Below the pieces are notes generated by a model. The model was given only the letters and a program-made list of their open reading frames with translations. It ran no database searches and was not told the origin of the DNA. 64,000 bases of DNA from Paramecium tetraurelia (taxonomy: Eukaryota). This document shows, piece by piece, positions 35,396 to 52,216 of this stretch (position 1 is its first letter; every line of letters starts with the position of its first letter). Location of the stretch: the NCBI GenBank assembly GCA_000165425.1, contig CT868029.1, positions 124,001 through 188,000 on the forward strand, given 5' to 3'. Position numbers and translations under genes: made by a program.

Positions 35396-38300
35396 TCATT
35401 CAAACATATCGTCTCTCTTGAAATTTTATATTACACTATCTTATTGATTTTCTTCATCAGAGCATTTTTCCGAAATATACCCTCCTAGTTTCTTGACTTG
35501 CTTTTCACTTTGAGTCGCTTAGAGAGTTCCTAAACTCTTATCAGATTTGATTGCAGGAAAATCGATTTTTTGAGTTTCATGTACAACTTTCATTGGAAAT
35601 CCATTGCACATTTCGTCAGGATCAATATAAAAGTTTAGACTAGTCAAAGAATTTTTGTCATCCTTGTTTTGTTATTATTTCTAGTAGTTTTGATGCATAG
35701 CTCTCTTTGGTTGATGGATGGCTTGTTCAATATCAACATTGATTTCACTCCTTCTTTAGACATTGGTTTATTAGAAGTTATACACCTTTTTTCTTATTTA
35801 GCTCCTTCTTCTGCCTTTATTTCTTTCAAGCAGAGTCTTGGTGGTGATGTAAGCATTTTCATTAATTTCTAATTGCTTTAAGTTTTTCTCCTTTTGCATT
35901 TCCTTGATTCTTTTCTTGATCTTCCTCCTCTCAATAACTCTAAATTAATAACATCAATACCCTCTCAAAATGTCAGTGATGGAATTAAAAGCAAAGATAT
36001 CTACAACAAATTGTTAGGTTTTCATTCCAACCAAATCAGGATATCTGGACTCCCATGATTTTCTTATTTAACGTAGAATGATCTTGTCTTCAATCTATTC
36101 GATTCCTTTGAGTTCATTCTTCTTTTTTATTGCATTGTAAGCCAACTGGATACATATATCCTTGAAATGAACCATTTTATTTTGATAAATTTACACTTGA
36201 TAATCACTTAGTTTTTGAAAGATCTCAGTTTTGAATAGTCTCATCTTTTTCTTATGATTATAGAAATGGGACTTCAATTTTTGATTTTCTAATTATAGAG
36301 TTTTCTATTTTACTTGCAGCAGCAAAGTCGTAATATTGAGAATTTTCATCTTTAAATCCTAGAGGGGGATTTATTTCGAACATCAAAAATGCAAAATCTT
36401 CTGGGGTTATCCAACCTGTACCTTGAGGATCATAATCCGACCATTTAACTAAAAAGTCCTCTAATTAATACGGATTTATGGCAGCCGTATTTTCTAATTG
36501 ACATTCCTGATATGATTCAATAATCATGGCTAAAAACAATGAAGTCATGATGATGCGAATCAAAACCAGAAAGCTAATAAAGAAAAAATAACCAAAGATT
36601 GTACTACACCCCCGAGCACCTTCCGATTCAAATTGTTCAGGAGTTTGGGCATGACATCCTTTGGTATCAATTGTATAATCAGCCATATACAAAGACCAAT
36701 ATTAACCAGTAGAAATATCGATTAAAATCAAGACTCCATCTAAGAAATTTGAAAAGGACTTAGTTCTTTAGCTTTCTTCCATCGTATAGGGATACTGAGG
36801 ATCTGATGACGTGCTCCATACTGTTGAAAAGGTCTGGACTCCTATTAGTGAATATATGATTATGGTGATTGCAATGAATACTATGACACTCAATAAGGTA
36901 GGAATCAGATCTTAGATCACATCAATGAGAACTCTCAATTGTTTATTGAACCTAAATAATTTATTGGCTTTTATGATTCTCAGGGATCTTATAATGAGTG
37001 GAATCGTGTAAAGTCTAGGCAAGTCAAAACTGTCCTTCATTATCAAGAGCACATCTGTCACAATCAATATGATAATATCGAATTTATTGAGAATATCTCT
37101 GAAGAAATGAACCCAGTATGCGAGTAGTTTGATGAACAATTCCACATGGAAAATTACTATAAAGAAAATACTCATTCCATATAATGCCTCTTAAGTGGTG
37201 ATACTCTACTTGCCACTATAGGATGAACAACTAGATATGAGTGCAATAATTACAAAATTAGATTGACCACAAGCAAAATTAGGATGACAGTCTCGAAGTA
37301 TTAGTTGCTAGCCAAATGATAACAAATTAGTCTGTATTTGGATGAAGGTTTGGGTATGAGATATATAAGTTTCTTCTTTTGCATTATTTACATCATTTAT
37401 ATCCATTGTCTTTGAAATTCATTTAATTACTAAAAGTTGGCAATGTTCTCCTTGATAGTTCTGTAATTGTTGATGATCAAGCCAGTGATTAGATTGAGCA
37501 ATACGATATTCAATGAAAAGATCAACACATAAAAGAAGAATTGGTATTAGGATGATGAATTAATTTTAGGATTGAGTCCTCTATTGGTGATGTCAGATAC
37601 ACTAAACATTTATTAGGTCCAACCCTCTCCAATGATTAATCTGAACAAACAAAGTAGGGAATCTTGGATTGTATCATAATTGGTTATATTATTTATCCAT
37701 TATCCTCCTTTGGCGAGACAATCTTCTACGTTGACAATATCTTAAAAGTCTTTCAACGATACTTAGGAGCAAAAATAGAGTTTGCCCTTCCATATTGTCA
37801 TGCATATGATACTTAGAATCCACAGACTTATGCCAGTAACAAATATCATTGATGAAAGTAATGAGATGGTTTATAATAAAGATCTGGATATTAGATTCAG
37901 TTACTCATTTTGCGATCCTCTCTACATATATCAAAATTAATTACCCGTAATGTGATCAGAATTCTTAATGTTCTCAGAGCTCTGAAGGCTCTTAAGTATT
38001 AGCTCTTGTAAATATTGAGATCATCAAGAGAACTAATAATGAGGACTACGAAATCTAATTAATTGTTATTGTTCATGATATAGGATTTTTGAGGTTCCTA
38101 TTTATTCCAATAGAAACCTTGGGCTAGGATTTTGATAAATGCGTCCAATATGAAAATGCCAGTAAATGCATAATTAAATACATCAATAACTAAATTCTCC
38201 TTTCTGAGAGGTTGATCATACCCTAAGAGTATTAAATTAGACAAAATAATGAAACTCATTGCCCAATCATAATATTTAGATTGAATGAGAATGTGTAATT

Positions 38301-40798
38301 TCTTCCTTAAATTAGATCGGTTGTGTAGGATAAAAAGTGATGAATTTCCAAAGAATTCTTTCCAATTCTATTAATAAAGTGATATTATTTAGAAATCATC
38401 ACTGCTTTTGAAAATCTACACCTACTAATATTTTGATTATTGTCTTTTTAACGCAGGGTGTTATTTTGAATGAGTCTCCTCTTTCTCACTGTCATCAGAG
38501 ACCTTAGACAATCTTCCAAAGAAGCGTTTCTTTTCAGATTATGAATTGCTGACTTGCAATAATGAGGTCTCTTTTGTTGGTACAATTCTAGATTTATTTT
38601 GCATTGTTGAAATAATTTTAGTAGCTCTAGCTTTTGAAATATCAGCTTCGTTTTTAGCATCTTCATAATTATCAAGCATCAAAGTCAAAAACGAGGGAAG
38701 TATAAAAAATTTACAAATAAATTAGACACAAATGAAAAAGATATACGGAATCCAAGATCCAGTTTCCAATGTAGTATAAAATATGGTTTACCATTAATCC
38801 GAAGATATGATTATAAACAATGTAGTAATTGTCTCTCTCATACTGTCGAAATTAGCCCTTGGAATATAGGAACCATCCAAATCATAGAATCCTAAATCAT
38901 TGAATCTTAATTTCCCAGCAAAAAAGTTACGACCCATCAAACCAATCACTAGACCGTAAATAAAGAGTATCAAAATCATGATGGGGATGTTGTTGAACGA
39001 CTTCCATAAGGCTGATAATAAAACTCGATAATTTGACCAACTAGTTTAGTAATTGAAGACCCATAGCAATCGTATTCCTTTGATTGTATTTAAGATGAAG
39101 GGATGTTCCAATTAATTGACTTGGACTATCAAACCAACAAAATCACAAATAAATTCTAATAACACAATTATTTTGCTTTCCTTTTATTTCCAAATATAGA
39201 TTCTTGCTATGTCTTCTATTAAATAAATTACCAAAAACACCACATTTATTTTGGCTAATGTTCCTTCTAATTTGTTTATATATGCTGATTCATCATTTAG
39301 AGACAACACAACAAGATTAGCCAAAAATAAAAGACTGTAAAAATATTGCGTTATTTTTGAAGATAAAATAGATTTGATAATTACTCTAATCTTTCTTTAA
39401 TCACTACTTCTTTTAGTTGAATTCATAAGCATAGTCATAACTCTTTGTTTACTTCTACTAAGATAATTGGGACTCTAAAACACAGTCTTTCTTTTTTCAT
39501 TCGTTAATGATATTTTGGTATGACTATTTAAAAATAAAACTGTTTAAGCTGGTTCATCTAAATGAACTTCTTGTTGAGATTACTTCAGAAATATGGCAAC
39601 CACCAAGTTTTACAAAAAGAATGAACAAATAAAAATATAAGTCCACAAATACCCAGTACTCACATATTTATTGAATGAGTCAGCCAAACTCTATTCAATT
39701 TCTACCCATCCTTCAATATAATGGACTATAAACAAACTAGCCATTGATTCTTGAATGTAATCAAATTTAGTGAAATTATGTGAATACTAAATGAATGGTT
39801 ACTCAAATTGAGCCTGCTGACATTCATATCCATCAGAACAAGACCTTCCCAAACCACAAAATCGAGTTGGATAGTAGTCAACCTCATTATCTTTGTTGAT
39901 GCATTAATTTCCGATAATCCCAGTCCAAATTTGTAATCCTACCACTGCAAACACATAAAAGAAAAAGCAAATTATTATTGTGATGTAAACAATTGAGATA
40001 AATGAATGTTCTACTGTCAAACAAAATTTTCGGACTATTCTTAAAATTTTGTAGTGCATAAAAAACTCAAGCAAAAATAGTATTCTTAATGTATAAAAGT
40101 AAGATTGTCTCAAAATTAAGGCGAAGAACAAGGCTATTCCATTTATGAATGCTATTGGGTTCCTGTAGTATCCGTATTTACAACTCCATAACCTACATAG
40201 TTATTCTAAATACCCATATGAAACTATCGATATTAGGTGATGAGCAGCAAATATCACATCTGCGGTGACTATTACTCCCAGGATCTGATCATCATTTAAA
40301 CTGAACCCAAATCCACTCTTTTGACCATTGTAAGGCTTGATCATCAAAATCACTATACAAAATGTTGTCTAAATAGTTTGGAAATAATACGAATATGTAC
40401 ACAGAATATTAATAAACTCGAGATTCATTTATTAAAATGCAATATTGCCGAAATTTATTATTCATTCCAAAATAATCCAAAGAAAATTAGCAATAATAAG
40501 GATTCTCATTTTTTTAAAACTGTTCATCAACATTTTCTAAAAAGTGTAATCGAATGTTTGCTTACGATGGATTTGGTGAAAAAATCCCCTACTCTTAATT
40601 CAACCTATTTAAATCATTTGTTGCCTAAAATTCCTTATTATGGCTTTCTATTTGATTCATATTTTACTTGTTATACTAATGTTTCTAAAAGGACTATGGC
40701 AAAATGTCCTAAACTGAAGATAAGATATCCTTCTCATAATCGCGATTCATCCTAAACTTCGGTTACTTTTTGAAGCAATTTAAAAAAGACTAAAGCAT
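35396..40798 (-). CDS. Four-domain (24-TM) voltage-gated-type cation channel alpha subunit (CaV/NaV superfamily), filter E/D/E/Q
   Basis: Four repeats with pore loops YIEGW, SSDQW, IGEGW, TGQYW. S4 YLRAFRALRTLRIL (DIII) and IRSLRIIKANKLFR (DIV). Post-S6 segment KWSDYDPQGTGWI...PPLGF. Confidence 0.9.
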
Positions 40799-43104: not shown

Positions 43105-46100
43105 TCAGAATTTTCTTATTTTGAAAGATTAATCTGGAGATATAAAGGCTTATTCAAATAATCCTCCTGATTGCTAATCACTCTGCCATCTGTAAACAGG
43201 AATGTCTTCCTTTTTAGGTTGGTCTTCCTCTGAACAATTGGTATTTGGATGAATATTTTCTGGTCGTGGTTCATCATTTGATATAACTTATTGTGTAATA
43301 TCATCTTCAAGAAATTAATTACAATCTTAATCAATGCTAAAGGATACACTAAAATAAGTACTATTGGTTATTTATAGATTTTTTATCGAATGAAGAATCC
43401 TGCTCATCCAGATCTTCCTCAGTGAATTGTTTCTATTTGATGTTGAGCTTCTTAATTAGTTTTCTAGAGTAAGCCTCCCATGCTTTGTATAAAATGAGGA
43501 CTGTCAGATAATCATGTAATATATTGAAGTTGGCTTTCAAATGCAGAATGGGACTGATGTTGCTTCTCTACAGGAACCTGTTTCTTCTGTAATACATCAG
43601 TCGGAGTTACATTTCCTTGTTGAATTACTTGACTTTCTTGATTGAGGAAGAAGTGCCGTTCTTGAACACTTCACCATGATAACATACTCTAAATAGTTCG
43701 TATATTAATTGATTATACTGAATGTATCCAAAGTGGTCACTATTTTATTATTAACAATAAATACCATTATAATTTAAATGAAGAAGCCAATTTACCAACA
43801 TCCCATAAATTCTCATCACTCCCACCACCCAAAGGTTTCCCAATATCCAATAAGAAACGACACAAAAACTTATAATGCATTGCTTGACCTTATGTTTCAG
43901 AAGAGTATTTACACCAAATTGTTTTGATCTTATCCATATTTTCAACGTAAGTTTGAATCATTGAATTTTAGAGCATAAAGAATTACTCAAACTATTCCAC
44001 CAAGCCCAAAACAAACAAATTTAATAGAACATAATTTGACAGCAACATAAATAGGAAGAAGTAGATTTAATTATAAATACTTCCACAATAGGTTTCATCT
44101 TCCGCACAATAAGGATTATAAAATATTGTGTCAGTCATTATAGTTCTCCAATCATCTCCTGATGCACATTTAGAAAAGGGAGAGCATGGCTTAAGCCAAC
44201 ATTCTGGAAATTGATTTAATCATCCATCACCTATCCCTTTTCTAATCTTCCATATAATTGACAGCCGAAAAGTGCAAAAATATACATCGTTATGATCAAC
44301 AAGCAGAAGATCTTCCCCAAAAATGGCATAGCAAAGACCATGACTCTCATTAATCTCTACAAATTAATCAATCCTTAGAAAATCAAAATAATTCTTAAAC
44401 ATCTGATGGCAAAGAATAACCGAAGGAGTTGATATCCTGAATCAGCTGGTGATGATCTAAAATAGACCAAGGCCCAATCTGATTCGAAATCAGCTATAAT
44501 ATCAATGATGGCTATTAAAATCAAGAAGAAATAGAATCTTCTCCAATGATTATCAAAAAATCTATTGACTCCTAAAGCAAAAAACAATAGGATATTCCAA
44601 ATGATGTAGATATATGTTAAACTATTGTGAGTACTATTCAAAATTCTGAAAAAGTTGTCATCCATCTCAGAAAAGAAGAGCAATAACACCATTAAATCGA
44701 GCAGTAATAAACAAAACATAATCTTTTGAGCAGTATTACTGTTTGTTAAATCAGAAGCAAATCTTCTAATCTTAGAAGTAGGAGGTGAAGAGTACAATGG
44801 AAAGTCTTTAATAATTATTTATGAAATCTCCATAAACTCTACTTGAGCTTTGGTGATATCAGACATTTCTATTTTGCTCTAATTGGCTTTCAAATTTGAA
44901 TATAAGACTCCCGTAAATAGACTCAAGAAAAACATTGATCCAATAAAACAAAATGTTATAAAAAAGGTGTAAGTATGTATGTAACTATTAAATGCCTCAG
45001 GACCTATATTTGGATTCTAACTGTTTTCTGATATCTGCATAATTTCACCCCATCCATCAAAAGTGGAAACTACAAAAAGAGTGGGGATAGCTATTGTAAT
45101 ATTGTCGAAATTATGTTTATAATTGATCCATGTCCTGTTCTACTCTAAACATTCCCGCTTGTTAACTTCAAATTGCATTTTGTCTTCACAAAATCCAAAC
45201 TGCTGCTCATATAAGATAATTCCATAAACTCCAAATATAATCCACACTGAAAGCATAGTAATCAGCACATTCCAAATGTCTGCTAGAGATCTACCTAATG
45301 CTAATCGAAGTGTGTCTAACCATGATATTCTGTACATCAATTTCATCACTCTGAAATATCCTAAATATAGAATTAACTCCACTATTATGCTTTTGTTTTG
45401 ATTTGATAAAAAATTGAGGAAAAATGAAATGATATAGATGACATCCACTATTTACCATGTGTATGTAATGTATGCTCCCTTATTCATCCACATTCCCTTT
45501 GCAATACTACCGAAAATAATCTCTAACAGAAATATAATATTGGCTATGAATTGCAAAACCTCTGGATAAAATGAAGAATCACTCTCATAGTCATTATATG
45601 TCTTCAAAGCAAAGACAACAATTGAAAAATATAAAACAGTATCTATAAAGTAATTGAAGAATTTTGAAGTGATTATTCTGCAACATATTATTCTGAAAAG
45701 GTTTTCCTTTTCAAATAAATAAAACGATTATTTGCATTAGATTCCATCATATAAATTAGGATATTTGTTTAATATATCTTTATGAACTTGTCTGATTGAT
45801 TTCATTAAGTTTGTTATTAAATGCTACTTGGACTTTTTCTATTGGGTTTCACTTAAATTAATTTATGATATCAATGGATTTAAATTCAACTAAAATTCGT
45901 TTATTTCTTGTTGTTCTGTGATCTGTGAGTTTTATTCCTCCTATTTCTCATTATTCTTTTCCTCATCTTATTCTTTTTCTTCATCCAACTCCTGCATTTC
46001 CTTGTCAATAGCTCCGAACCCATCCAACAATATAGCCAACACCAAACCATAGGTGATATAATTCAATAATATAACCATTGAATACGAATAAATTACAGCA

Positions 46101-49100
46101 AATATATAGTTAATATTTCCTCCCATAACATAGACTCCATACCAATCATCATTTGTTAAGATGTTGAAAATCGTCATAAAAGCCTTTAGAATATTGTCAT
46201 AGGAATGCAATTATCCTAGAGCATCTGTTTAGTCGAAATATCCGGCATACATCTCCATGCCAATCATAGCATAAACAAAGATGACTAAAAAAAACAAGAA
46301 GGTCAAATATATATATTATCTGAAAGTTCGCTAAGCAATATGTCCAATCGCCACTGCCATTTTATTATATTTCAATACTCGATAAAACAGAAGACACTTG
46401 GTCCCCCTTATCAACCTAAGATTCTGTTCATTTAAGTTTGTCATTACTGAACTCATAGTAAGCTCGATGAAGTTCAAAATCACAATGCAGGATTGTAGAA
46501 CGTAATCGGGACTTTAAGATATGTCTTTAAAAGAAAAAGCAAAAAATCTAATTACTAATTCTATGCATAGAAATATTGTTGAAACATCCTCCTCATTAGA
46601 TATTGTTACTGAATCAGCTATTCCTTATAATGATAGAAATGTAAAATTAATTAAGATAACACTATCAAAAAATAATTAGCTTAGTTAAGATGTAATTAAA
46701 ATATAAGAGTATTTTCGCAGAGTTTCAATTTTACCTTTAAACCCAAGCATCCAAATTTAAATGTCAATAAAATTAAGTCTCTTTAACACTTCTCTGAAAT
46801 TGAATAATCTAGACTCATTTAATTTAAGAACGTCATTTCCAGACCAAGTTTTTTTTGAAATCTAATTCTATTGAATATCCTTCCTTCTTAGTAATCTATA
46901 CTAGAATTCATTGGATGGCTAAGAGTGTTTGTTTTTCTGAATTTTAGCATTAATTTTTAAAGAAACTCCTGCATAATTTAAATAGTATCCTTGGATATGG
47001 ACCCAATTTTAGTCTTATTTTTTAATTGCAAATGGAACCTTGCCTTCATTTTATGAAAATTTGAGTTTATGAGATAGTGCCATACTTTGTTTTTAAATAA
47101 ATAGGTTTTGATCCAAAGAATTGTTGGTTTCTACTTCTTCATCCTCAGTCTCATTCAATTTGATCCTTTTCACCTTTCGAATCGGAAATTGACTGAGTTT
47201 CTTGCGATCATATACAATTTATTAAATCTTTTTTTATTTTATATCAGGATAAACAACAGGTATTTTGATGTTCCTCATGTTGAGAATTTCCTTTTCTAAT
47301 TCCTTTTTCTCGCAATCAGGCAAACTATTTATAGAGGAATCTCATTTACTTTAGAGTTGGCAAAACGTCTCCTTCACTTTCAAATTTCTAATGAATTTGT
47401 TAATTGACTGAGGATTACAATTAGGAGAATTATAAAGACTTTAATCTTTCTAATATTTACAACTCAATCTCGTCTTCAGTATACCTTTTAACATGAATAG
47501 TCTTTTGTTTCTCATTCAGTAAGTAGAATTTAGGCAATAGAATGTTTTTTACTGTTAAATTCTAAATTTTATAAATTAATCTTTTAAAATAACCTTACTA
47601 AAACAATGTTATAATATTTTATTACTTTTGGATTGTAATCTTCATTCTTTTTTTGTTTAGCTGACAATATTCTTGGTCCCTTTTACTTATTTGAATTGCC
47701 TTTTTCATTGACATTTTCTTCTAATTTGAAGGCTCGATAAGGGGATTTTAAAGCCAACCGATATCTTTGAATAACAGGAAAAAATTCAATATATCTCAAA
47801 AAAGCCACATCAAAAACATTAATAATATCTCTTTCGGGAAGTTCCCTATTCTCCTTAATCTTCTACTGTATTTATCTCATTTCTTCTTCCTTTGCATTCT
47901 CCTCTGCAGCTTCAGCATAATGTATTTTAATGACCGCAATAACTAAATTGAATCCAAAGAATCCGCAAACAAAAATAATGAATAAATAATACAACCAAGT
48001 CCATGGATGATAGATTCTCATCGTAAAGAACATGACCCAACTCCAATCATCCATTGTAATAGTTCTCAAAACTTGTCCATATGAATAAACGACATTGTTA
48101 AAGGAAGTCGGAAGTTTCGGAGTGAATGATGAATATTTACAAGACATTCCTTCCTCATAACAGGAATTTTAATTGCATTGGACCCACCCGTCAGTTTCAT
48201 CCCCATTATCATATTGACATCTATAATTAAATAATCCTTGAAACAAAAAAACTCCTGTGATTGCAAAAAACAACGAAAACAATCCTACTATCATTAAAGC
48301 TTCTAAGAGAAATCGAAAAGACTATTTCAATGCTTTCAACATCACTCCCAACCCTGAAAAGATGTCTCCTAAATACAGTAACAATGTTATCACACGCAAA
48401 GGCGATACATCTACTATGAATACATCAGGATAATTAATGTTTAAAACATAAACTACAACCAAAATGCAATCAAATAAGTCTTAAAAATTCTTGAAGAAGG
48501 CTCCTTTTGGAATTAATACACCTGAAGCTAGTATTCTGATTCCCAGTTCTATCAAGAAACAAATCATAATTGCTGTTTCCATATCTTTGGTTGACAGGGG
48601 GTCTTAATTGGTTTAAGAGTATATGTATAGGGTGACATTGAAGATAATTAGAAAGGACATGATGATTTTGAATGGAACACTCCTTATTATCCTTTTGCAT
48701 AAGATTGGAATAAATAAGGAATAATAGACTATAGACTTTCTTAGATTCAGAAATTTTTTATCATCATTATAAGCCTAACAATGGAAATGTTAAATTTACA
48801 TTTATTTCATAGTGCAATCTTTCGAATCCATGCAGATCCTACAACTTCACATAGTAAGGATCCTCAAATGGGTTTCTTTCATATAGTTTTTTAAATTTTC
48901 CTTTTAACTTATCCTCTACCGATTCATTATCAGCATAATCATCCTCTTCACTGTCACTTAGTTGTTATTTGACTCTATTATGAACTGCTAACAACTTAGA
49001 TTAAAAGGCTCCTTTTTTGCTACGATGAGACATCTTTAAGGATCTTTGGGATGACATTCCGTCACTTACTTAGGATTGAAGCATTTGATCTCCTCCACAT

Positions 49101-49724
49101 TGTTTTTGAATATTGATATCTTGTTTCATTCCCCATCGATGTTCAAAATCAATAAACTAAACTTTTAAAATAGACTTTTCAATTCCATCTGAGATATCCA
49201 ACGGATTTATGAAATCTTAATCAAATGACATATTCGGCAATATTAATTTATCCTACACTTAATAAAAGGAGGATTGGGCTTATTATATAATACCAATATT
49301 GTCCTTTAAAATTATTGATTAGTCTAACTTCTCCTTGTTCGATTCCGAATCACTAGAAAAAGATGATGATCCTGAAGATAAATCTTTGTTCATTGAAATG
49401 TTCACTTTTTATTTGCTTTTGATAGATGAAACGGAATGTCTGCTTCCTATCATTCTTATTTTACTTTCTTCCGACGAGAATAAATTAGAGTTGCTCATTT
49501 TTCTATTTGCAATTTCCCTTGAAATTGAGAAACGCTTCTTAGAACTTCTGGCTACTTCATTCTGCTTTCTATCACTTATCTTCTGCATTTCCTATAAATA
49601 ATAAATTAATCATATTTAAAGTCAAGTTTGAAAACAATAAATTCACCTCCACTTCCTCATCTGACCTAGAATATCCCCCCTCCTATCTTCGTCCTCGAAC
49701 TAGAATAGACAAGTGAATTTTCAT
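43105..49724 (-). CDS. Four-domain cation channel alpha subunit with D/D/D/D filter; frameshifted in domain IV as assembled
   Basis: Pore loops TITMDDW (DI), ILTNDDW (DII), VSTFDGW (DIII), CASGDDW (DIV); S6 FFGFNLVIAVI and FFLSLFTGVLY. Two extra bases at about 44170-44200 break the frame. The start is 49724 (needs a 55-nt intron) or 49588. Confidence 0.88.
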
Positions 49725-49743
49725 TTGAAATTATTATAATATA

Positions 49744-52216
49744 TCATTTCATAGCTGAGCGATTGCTTTTATGTATTGTTGTCCTACTGTCTCCTAGCAA
49801 CTCTGATTCGGTCTCATAAATTATATCAGTTCTATTTATGTTCGTGCTTTTTCTACTCTAACTCACTCTAGAATCCCTATTTAACTAGAACTTCTCAGAC
49901 AAAGAATATAATCTATCAGCCAACGATTATATATCATTTTTCAATTTGCTTTGTTCCGGCTACTAACCCCCCTATTAGGAATGATTTTCATTAGATTTAC
50001 TTCTGTACTCCTCCTAAACCTGAGTCGGTTTCTAAACTAAATTAGTTATGATTAATTTAATACTTTTCTAATCTTAAATTTTTTTAGCAAAATTTTTAGC
50101 ATCTCTCAAATTTGGCTTCTTGAGTAAAGGAGACTTGTTTTCATTATTAGAAAGCGTCGATAATCGATTAGATGTGGCCTTGAAATAGCTTTATTATTGC
50201 TTTTTTGGTTGCAATTGTTTTACATCCTTTTTTGGAGTTTTCTTATAGCTTTTAGGCAATGAGTCTTCTCTACTTTTATTATGTTAATTACTCCTCAATT
50301 CTACGAAAATCTTAACTAGCACTACTTCTATCTGATCTCAAAGTCTCTGTTGGTTGAGTAAATAAAGGCATTGCATCTATATTCAACTATTAAAATGAGT
50401 TCCTTCTTTATTTTTCTATCTAAGTATTAAGTAATTTAATTACTTTGATTTCCTATAAACATTACTATATTTAATGTTCTAAGTTTTAAAGATCTTCTAA
50501 ACTAAATTTTTTGAAATTTGGTTATCCCTCATAGCACGAAAGTCTATTTAGGGCATTTTAAGATAGTTTTTCAAATTTCTCATTTTACAATTTTAATTCT
50601 TTTATTTATTATTCCATTTCTTTGTGGGAATTGAAATAAGTAAGAATCTATTCATTAGATTTCTATAATCTTTTATGAAGTTCTGTACAATTCTTTTCTA
50701 AAAGTACATTCTTTTCCATTTCTTATTGTAGTTATGAATTTAATTCTTGGGTTTTCTCCAATAGGGATACATCAGTTTCATTGAATTGACTTACTGATGG
50801 CTTTGAAACTAATTAAATTTCCGATTATTTAAAATTTGTTAAGATTTCTGAACCATTTTATGTTTGTATTTGCTATTTTAATGAGTCAATAATCTTTTAT
50901 TAATCTTAAATGATCTTTTCATTTTGTTTGTTTTTTTGGATTAACTAATTTAATTTTTATTAATTATTAGAATAGGAAGCATCAAAATTTACATTCTATT
51001 CAATTTTAGATTCAACCAATTTTGCACTTGTGCCAAATCTCAGAGTAGATTGTGTTTGGTCATATTAACTCAATCCAGGGTTAATACTCAAAAGAATCAA
51101 GGTTTTGAAGTTCCCTGTGAGTGAAGATCTAGAGAAAATACAATAGATTAGATACTTTAATAGTTTAGTTAATGTTGAGTTACGATAGGGGATGTGTTGA
51201 GGTGGAACCTTTTAAGTTTTTAATGCAATAACTCTTGTTAAAAAGAACAAACTCTTATTGATTGCAGAGCTCTCTTTATTTCTATCCTTCCTATTGGAAT
51301 TTCTAGTGATATCATCTGAAATTGGACTCGATGTTATTTTTTCACTGCCTGCTAAATCAATAAAGTTGATGCATGCTTCAGTGGAAAAAGTAAAGTTTTC
51401 CTCTTCTTCGGACTCATTGGAGTAAGCACTAATGAGCACTTTGAAGATTGTGTGGCTTCTGCTGCTTTGGTGATTCAATATGGTTTCTGCATAATGTCTA
51501 TTTTTTTCTCCCTTTGAAATGCATGCAATCACATCTTCAATGGAGGTAACATTGAATTCTTTGATATTTTTGATGACAAATTCCTTATTTAAATTAGGGG
51601 ATAATTTACCTTACGATAATCAGTTCCAAAAATGAGGGGTTCAGATAACTCATTTTCTTCACGTAACAGATCATAAATAAACTCATTGTAGATTTCATAA
51701 TAACTACATTTAATTTCGAACTATCTCTTTTCATCCTAGTGATATAGAAGTAGCATATACAATATTAATCTGTTTAAAAAGTTCCATCATTGAGTAGATC
51801 AAAATTCCCACATCGTTGTATTGATTATTTGCAAAACTATCTTTGATTAATTACTAGATGTTGCTATTGTTGTTTTGGAGCATCTCCTAATTCCTCTTTC
51901 CTAACATTGTAAAGGTTTTGCCTGACCCTGTCTATCCATACATGATGACAGTCCCATTGATGCCATCTAAAGATTGCATAATTACTTGTTTGACAGAAGT
52001 TGAAAACAAAAAATAGTTGTCAGCTTGTTGACCATAGCAATGATTGAATTCGTAAATCAAACTATTGACTACTTTTTTTTAAGCAATCAATTCCTTTAAG
52101 CAAATTTTATTGAGTTAAATTTTTTAGTCATTGGCATCCCAAGCTATTATTTCGTTGTCATTAATTTCTTTTTGGTTGAGTGGTCGTATTCTTAAGCATA
52201 CGCTAATTTTTTCCAT
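49744..52216 (-). CDS. N-terminal kinesin motor protein with coiled-coil tail (possibly kinesin-7/CENP-E-like)
   Basis: ISVCLRIRPLN, P-loop YGQTGSGKTFTM, NHQSSRSHTIF, FIDLAGSE, HIPYRNSTLT, STLRFG. Confidence 0.93.

Follow-up and report, generated by a model that had tools for sequence, protein, structure and literature searches.

The window analyzed here, a stretch of 64,000 nucleotides from contig CT868029.1 of Paramecium tetraurelia (positions 124,001 to 188,000), carries on its minus strand, at 43105..49588, a gene whose long open frames lie in three phases and are joined by short GTA...TAG introns when read under the ciliate genetic code (code 6, in which TAA and TAG specify Gln). The locus is that of GSPATT00033796001, and the gene, interrupted by five short introns, is probably intact and encodes a channel of 2117 amino acids (aa) with four six-transmembrane domains (4x6TM; domains I to IV, hereafter DI to DIV), a member of the CaV/NaV superfamily and of ciliate subclade Ic that is likely to be Ca2+-selective and weakly voltage-gated at most. 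The features of the gene are collected in Table 1.

Gene model and the domain IV pore helix

A full-length relative from P. primaurelia (P0004, 2114 aa) covers the locus in tblastn from the ATG at 49588 to the stop codon at 43105-43107. The deposited product of GSPATT00033796001 (P0090, XP_001431341.1) matches the 1068-aa translation of an exon (P0001) at 100% identity and is annotated with 1791 aa, in comparison with 2117 aa for the corrected product. Once two extra bases are removed, the spliced model comprises 6354 nucleotides (nt) with one terminal stop and no other stop or frame break. Its identity with P0109, the ortholog from P. octaurelia, is 96.0% over 2117 aligned residues, the pore loops being the same in both, and it shares 85.7% identity with its closest same-species paralog (P0113, GSPATT00031894001) and 78.4% with another, Paramt29 (XP_001430212.1, P0120). 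Intron sizes of about 25 nt are typical for Paramecium. An earlier reading of the letters alone, referred to below as the sequence-only reading, had extended the gene from 43105 to 49724; the stop end stands, and 49724 proves to be the upstream ATG used in the P. octaurelia model, 33 residues beyond 49588, where the P. tetraurelia annotation starts. The first 25 residues of P0109 match window positions 49650-49724 (minus strand) at 80%. In the window, however, the frame from 49724 meets a stop unless one more intron is spliced out, and the true start codon may therefore be either 49724 or 49588.

As given, the window encodes a protein that is cut short: it shifts frame twice within about 25 nt upstream of the DIV pore loop SGDDW, such that NFQNV, AQAMLSLF, and KCASGDDW each have a frame of their own, the loop stands in another reading frame than the fifth transmembrane segment (S5) of DIV, and SGDDW is reached only by read-through. 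Orthologs read NFQNVAQAMLSLFKCASGDDW continuously across the DIV pore helix (P-helix) and pore loop. P0090 enters the wrong frame at the DIV P-helix and then stops, and the 1791-aa annotation is too short because the extra bases 44172 and 44196 lie inside this helix. Contigs from public sequencing runs were placed on 43900-44500, and in those of all four runs, drawn from four studies, both bases are absent; one contig covers the whole of this interval with 0 differences besides the two bases. Furthermore, all 20 public runs carrying the stretch contain only 0.89-0.91 of the sampled words, a share that by our own arithmetic is roughly the cost of two such base changes. We conclude that the gene is intact in the organism and that the two bases are reference-sequence errors or are private to the reference; since the public-run contigs lack both of them, the SGDDW loop belongs to the real gene.

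A pseudogene, in which the sequenced stock truly carries both frameshifts and has ceased to make a channel from this locus, is highly improbable. The frameshifted tail is indeed present in both the window and the deposited P0090, and P0113, a paralog from a recent duplication, is also short in the annotation (1543 aa, three Ion_trans stretches); nevertheless, the absence of both bases from the contigs of four out of four runs argues against decay, as do the 6354 nt free of any other stop or frame break and the 96% identity to the P. octaurelia ortholog with unchanged pore loops. An intron was also considered as the cause of the frame break, and the 41-nt GT..AG candidate was rejected, as its removal would delete the conserved P-helix and as orthologs and read contigs favor two 1-base insertions. 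Short contigs of 85 nt were additionally observed at window 44145-44230, with two- to three-fold higher depth and six differences, likewise without both extra bases; their probable source is paralogs in which the DIV pore sequence is conserved. The annotation of P0113 ends after domain III, while its orthologs in three sister species have 2114-2118 aa, and P0113 could be either a second case of truncated annotation or a true pseudogene.

Selectivity filter and voltage sensors

The four pore loops reported in the sequence-only reading (TMDDW, TNDDW, TFDGW, and SGDDW), each with an Asp two residues before the Trp, were all recovered on the minus strand under code 6, and the pattern [TS]xD[DG]W has four matches in the 127,996 six-frame positions of the window, which are exactly these loops. 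Each falls within a match to the Pfam family Ion_trans (PF00520), which is matched in every large exon of the gene and in four stretches in both the ortholog P0109 (1.6e-99) and P0090. Selectivity is assigned to the Glu of TxExW (PMC2229573). An L-INS-i alignment pairs each of the four loops gap-free with its counterparts in CaV1.4 of vertebrates, CaV1 of insects, and CaV2 of cnidarians and places every Asp in the column of an EEEE glutamate, and HMMER aligns ...TITMDDWSW... of DI to ...CITMEGWTD... of CaV1.2. By alignment, then, the D/D/D/D ring occupies the true filter position, the high-field-strength (HFS) site, in all four domains, and the misplacement outside the filter that the sequence-only reading had itself raised as a counter-case was not found. 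The following position (HFS+1) reads D/D/G/D from DI to DIV, the filter is without any Lys in the four domains, and the metazoan-type CaV filters EEEE and EEDD are absent from the gene, which has D/D/D/D instead.

The distribution of this filter was tabulated in two surveys. Among 86 relatives of 1870-5000 aa (42 from Paramecium and 44 from elsewhere), D/D/D/D is present in 38 of the 42 Paramecium sequences and in none of the 44 others; the four Paramecium exceptions (P0031, P0032, P0034, and P0035) either show R or N at the DIII position or lack one residue in DII. The second survey covers only non-Paramecium relatives, of which the best match is 26-29% identical, and drew on the 150 top-ranking representatives from an exhaustive search with HMMER, aligned with MAFFT FFT-NS-2 in a set of 155 sequences; the 113 with all four positions aligned include 60 with EEEE, 17 with EEDD, and none with D/D/D/D. 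A partial metagenome protein of 894 aa (P0130) reads -/D/D/D. A 2018 review lists DDDD among protist filter types (PMC6259924). Within the Paramecium paralogs P0028-P0045, several Ic subgroups have replaced the DIV pore Trp with Phe or Leu (SGDDF, SCDNF, SGDDL), and in a few copies, which resemble decaying duplicates, a filter Asp is gone (TFRGW, QFNGL).

Basic residues in the fourth transmembrane segment (S4), counted in the L-INS-i alignment with CaVs, number 1, 5, 3, and 3 from DI to DIV. The single Arg noted earlier in the DI S4 was confirmed; this domain keeps one of the five CaV S4 charges and retains the counter-charges S2 Phe/Glu/Arg and S3 Asp. Counter-charge positions are altered in the remaining domains, namely S3 Asp to Gln in DII, S2 Lys to Gly in DIII, and both S2 Glu to Asn and S3 Asp to Tyr in DIV. 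An Arg/Lys-rich S4 in all four domains, as in metazoan-type CaVs, is not seen in this gene. To judge from these residues the voltage sensors are heavily eroded, though not charge-free, and weak voltage gating is plausible. The earlier description of the channel as weakly voltage-gated is thus borne out as regards degraded sensors and goes unproven as regards gating, with five basic residues still in register in the DII S4.

Table 1. Features of the channel gene, in window positions.
Feature	Position	Strand	Basis or remark
Whole gene; ATG 49588, stop TGA 43105-43107	43105..49588	-	tblastn with P0004; spliced model; P0090 match
Exon 1, N-terminal cytoplasmic region	48800..49588	-	tblastn, spliced model
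Intron 1, 25 nt, GTA...TAG	48775..48799	-	spliced model
Exon 2, domain I and start of I-II linker	47626..48774	-	tblastn, Pfam
Intron 2, 28 nt	47598..47625	-	junction NPK/QGYFKR agrees with P0109
Exon 3, I-II linker	47350..47597	-	tblastn, spliced model
Intron 3, 25 nt	47325..47349	-	spliced model
Exon 4, domains II, III, IV and proximal C-terminus; includes both unsupported extra bases	43765..47324	-	tblastn, spliced model
Intron 4, 25 nt	43740..43764	-	spliced model
Exon 5, C-terminal region with IQ-like motif	43362..43739	-	tblastn, spliced model
Intron 5, 25 nt	43337..43361	-	spliced model
Exon 6, with stop codon	43105..43336	-	tblastn, spliced model
DI S4 SPLRVITLLLYL, 1 basic residue (single Arg)	48370..48405	-	alignment to CaV
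DI pore loop TMDDW (HFS Asp, HFS+1 Asp)	48043..48057	-	aligned to TMEGW of CaV1.2 and CaV1.4
DII S4 RLIRGTKCLLFYRVLK, R,R,K,-,R,K in register	46370..46417	-	alignment to CaV
DII pore loop TNDDW	46142..46156	-	aligned to TGEDW
DIII S4 YLGYFRVMKLMYR, R,K,R	45329..45367	-	alignment to CaV
DIII pore loop TFDGW	45050..45064	-	aligned to TFEGW
DIV S4 LRLFFAIRCLRIILIF, R,-,R,R	44378..44425	-	alignment to CaV
Extra base 1, DIV P-helix	44196..44196	-	absent from contigs of 4/4 public runs; orthologs read NFQNVAQAML
Extra base 2, DIV P-helix	44172..44172	-	absent from contigs of 4/4 public runs; frame restored once both removed
DIV pore loop SGDDW	44148..44162	-	aligned to TGEAW
IQ-like motif VLILYKAWEAY	43469..43501	-	same string as the "IQ motif" of Paramt29 in the PMC5824947 supplement

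Subclade Ic, family placement, and proposed function

Pozdnyakov, Matantseva & Skarlato 2018 (Sci Rep 8:3539, PMC5824947) divided ciliate clade I into Ia and Ib, with R/K-rich S4 segments and an E/E/E/E filter, and Ic, which is described as having a dominant D/D/D/D filter, at least one R/K-poor S4, an IQ motif, and a pre-IQ that is not identifiable, and as "likely voltage-insensitive". The window gene shows the D/D/D/D filter and the R/K-poor S4 segments (one basic residue in DI, three each in DIII and DIV), and the S4 strings, SDIT, and VLILYKAWEAY listed for Paramt29 in the supplement of that paper are identical or nearly so in it. By accession, six more relatives from P. tetraurelia correspond to Paramt23, 18, 20, 13, 26, and 33, all of which are Ic in the supplement tree. 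In our own count of that tree the D/D/D/D group makes up 20 of the 34 Paramecium sequences and is the largest block of four-domain channel genes; P0113 and the window gene add to these 20. XP_001431341.1 is absent from these 34, and was probably left out because its annotation is truncated.

A quick, unrooted maximum-likelihood tree (LG+G4, with the Shimodaira-Hasegawa-like approximate likelihood ratio test, SH-aLRT, as the only support measure) was built from 49 rows and 1280 columns. The rows were picked from about 270, with most of the near-duplicate hits from Paramecium and from insect CaV1, and most representatives, left out; named Ia/Ib ciliate channels, NaV, NALCN, and CatSper were not among them. 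A branch with an SH-aLRT of 100 separates the 12 D/D/D/D rows from all others, and the window gene joins P0109 (99), then P0004 (99), and then Paramt29 (100); in this tree without Ia/Ib it nests, with a support of 100, with seven named Ic members (Paramt29, 23, 18, 20, 13, 26, and 33). Outside this group, the closest rows are the metagenome proteins P0132 (S/D/D/E) and P0130 (partial), and because the filters of both are Asp-rich, Asp-type filters may extend beyond Paramecium. By sequence traits and tree position the window gene belongs to ciliate subclade Ic, a channel class that was documented from sequence in 2018 (PMC5824947) and is thus not new; the gene falls inside a clade with D/D/D/D on record, an outcome that the sequence-only reading had named as a counter-case, although the record is one of sequence only. 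The contribution made here is small, namely the full-length correction (2117 in place of 1791 aa) and the absence of the frameshifts from public-run contigs.

Comparison with channels of known structure was made by phmmer against the PDB with the relative P0004 as the query, and the E-values stand in for per-domain trees with named NaV, NALCN, TPC, and CatSper sequences. The best matches are to CaV2.2 (2.3e-77), CaV1 (about 1e-76 to 1e-74), and CaV3 (about 1e-72 to 1e-68), followed by NaV (1e-58), NALCN (1e-26), CatSper4 (5e-11), and CatSper1 (1.7e-6). The matches are collinear, with DII-DIV against CaV1.1 residues 474-1482, DIII-DIV against CaV2.2, and DI best against DI (of CaV1.2). Because of this collinearity and these E-values, the four-domain build appears to be inherited from CaV/NaV stock and not from CatSper-like units, and the likeness to CatSper, as far as sequence can tell, is one of convergent pore chemistry only. 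Of the earlier phrase "CatSper-like pore chemistry in one polypeptide", the Asp ring survives; kinship with CatSper does not, the protein being collinear with CaV (2e-77 vs 5e-11). The related proposal of a CatSper-like ciliary channel, one with high Ca2+ selectivity and weak voltage gating that would control the ciliary beat, is improbable. The HFS Asp ring is common to both, and the degraded voltage sensors would suit it; CatSper1 has D plus D and CatSper2-4 have D plus G at HFS and HFS+1 (PMC10120453, a review that is not fully consistent on the HFS residue of CatSper2-4), to be set beside D/D/G/D at HFS+1 here. Against this, the ciliary channels characterized experimentally are reported as E/E/E/E (PMC5824947), the sequence resembles CaV far more than it does CatSper, and the two differ in architecture from each other, CatSper being unlike the window gene in this respect.

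The preferred reading is that of a Ca2+-selective channel. The double acidic ring (D/D/D/D followed by D/D/G/D) would create a divalent-selective, most likely Ca2+-selective, pore, and this is a reasonable expectation because the HFS+1 ring resembles the LDDW filter of engineered NaChBac. Changing NaChBac to LDDWAD gave a permeability ratio PCa/PNa of 133 (PMC2229573), and according to a 2023 review channels with an Asp at HFS+1 are without exception Ca2+-selective, irrespective of whether the HFS residue is Glu or Asp (PMC10120453). Gating would be at most weakly voltage dependent and could possibly be set by another input, such as Ca2+/calmodulin (CaM) acting via the conserved proximal C-terminus and its IQ-like motif. 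Several points weigh against this reading. Conversion of EEEE to DDDD in CaV1.2 abolished Ca2+ and Ba2+ currents (cited in PMC2229573), and because of that loss an Asp ring in a CaV scaffold is no guarantee of conduction. Voltage gating may persist because the DII S4 retains its five basic residues, and no Pfam GPHH or IQ domain was matched, such that the IQ-like motif rests on the alignment of the 2018 paper. A search with the GSPATT, GSPATG, and XP identifiers of the window gene and two paralogs, which did not extend to the supplements of other papers, found no paper.

The same observations can be read as pointing to a non-selective or monovalent leak of the NALCN type in place of a Ca2+-selective pore, with the calmodulin-activated Na+ conductance of Paramecium as one candidate. 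This is considered unlikely, though less so than the other alternatives weighed here. Degraded sensors and an IQ-like motif would suit it, patches of Paramecium membrane have revealed a CaM-dependent Na+ channel, for which the consulted part of the source names no gene (PMC9608856), CaV1.2 with DDDD carried no Ca2+ (PMC2229573), and a diatom one-domain channel with Asp at HFS but not at HFS+1 is non-selective (PMC10120453). What tells against it is the HFS+1 Asp in three of the four domains, the very feature tied to Ca2+ selectivity (PMC10120453, PMC2229573), together with a filter that, unlike that of NALCN or NaV, has no Lys, and a NALCN match far weaker than that to CaV (1e-26 vs 2e-77).

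If the channel is Ca2+-selective as preferred above, a more specific, and distinctly speculative, assignment would be that the Ic D/D/D/D channels including the window gene carry the hyperpolarization-activated somatic Ca2+ current of Paramecium (Ihyp). The proposal is made by analogy, because of matched properties only (PMC2229130, PMC8208649). Ihyp shows high selectivity for Ca2+ and does not depend on the depolarization-activated current (PMC2229130); it arises in the soma, comprises two components, and undergoes inactivation by Ca2+ (PMC8208649); and it sets ciliary beat frequency while being separate from the ciliary depolarization-activated channels (PMC2229130, PMC8208649). Were this correct, the all-Asp pore with three HFS+1 Asp residues would account for extreme Ca2+ selectivity, the rebuilt sensors for unusual gating, and the IQ-like C-terminus for Ca2+-dependent inactivation. 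Paramecium is the classic "swimming neuron", and the portions of the literature consulted name no gene for either its hyperpolarization-activated Ca2+ current or its CaM-dependent Na+ current. More generally, ideas on Ca2+ selectivity that now rest on engineered bacterial channels could be tested on a naturally occurring four-domain channel in which HFS and HFS+1 both carry Asp.

The gene has a second four-domain channel gene directly downstream, at window 36228-40461 on the minus strand, which is of a different subfamily. Its pore loops read YIEGW, SSDQW, IGEGW, and STGQYW (roughly E/D/E/Q), it matches Ion_trans at 4.3e-55 and 1.7e-33 and GPHH at 3e-06, and its S4 strings resemble those of Paramt21 in PMC5824947. 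The upstream neighbor, at 50144-51619 on the minus strand, encodes a kinesin motor domain (Pfam Kinesin, 3.9e-43) followed by a long coiled-coil-like, Gln-rich tail.

Comparison with known channels

Like the alpha-1 subunits of metazoan CaV1, CaV2, and CaV3, which are its best PDB matches (2e-77 to 3e-68), the channel has four 6TM domains in collinear order, pore loops of the form TxxxW, and conservation in the region after the sixth segment (S6). It differs from them in having Asp where their filter has Glu in all four domains, in carrying the HFS+1 Asp in three domains whereas they have it in DII only, and in its eroded S4 segments and lack of a GPHH or IQ match in Pfam. NALCN is a four-domain channel with reduced S4 charge, and its filter has a Lys (EEKE/EKEE), unlike that of the window gene, to which it is also a far weaker match (1e-26); NALCN moreover works in a complex with UNC79/UNC80. 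With engineered CaChBac (NaChBac with LDDWAD) the DDW core of the loop is shared; CaChBac, however, is a bacterial homotetramer with a fourth acid at +4 in every subunit, whereas the window gene has an acid at +4 only in DIII (TFDGWGE). The filter Asp ring and TxDxW loops recall CatSper1-4 (PMC10120453), which in contrast consist of four separate one-domain subunits with accessory proteins, as opposed to four domains in one polypeptide, and are only distantly similar in sequence (5e-11 and 1.7e-6). The accessory subunits of CatSper are beta, gamma, delta, and epsilon, and CatSper is activated by alkaline conditions. Among the channels of subclade Ic (PMC5824947), Paramt29 shares the D/D/D/D filter, R/K-poor S4 segments, the IQ-like VLILYKAWEAY, and SDIT in the III-IV linker, at the 78.4% identity given above.

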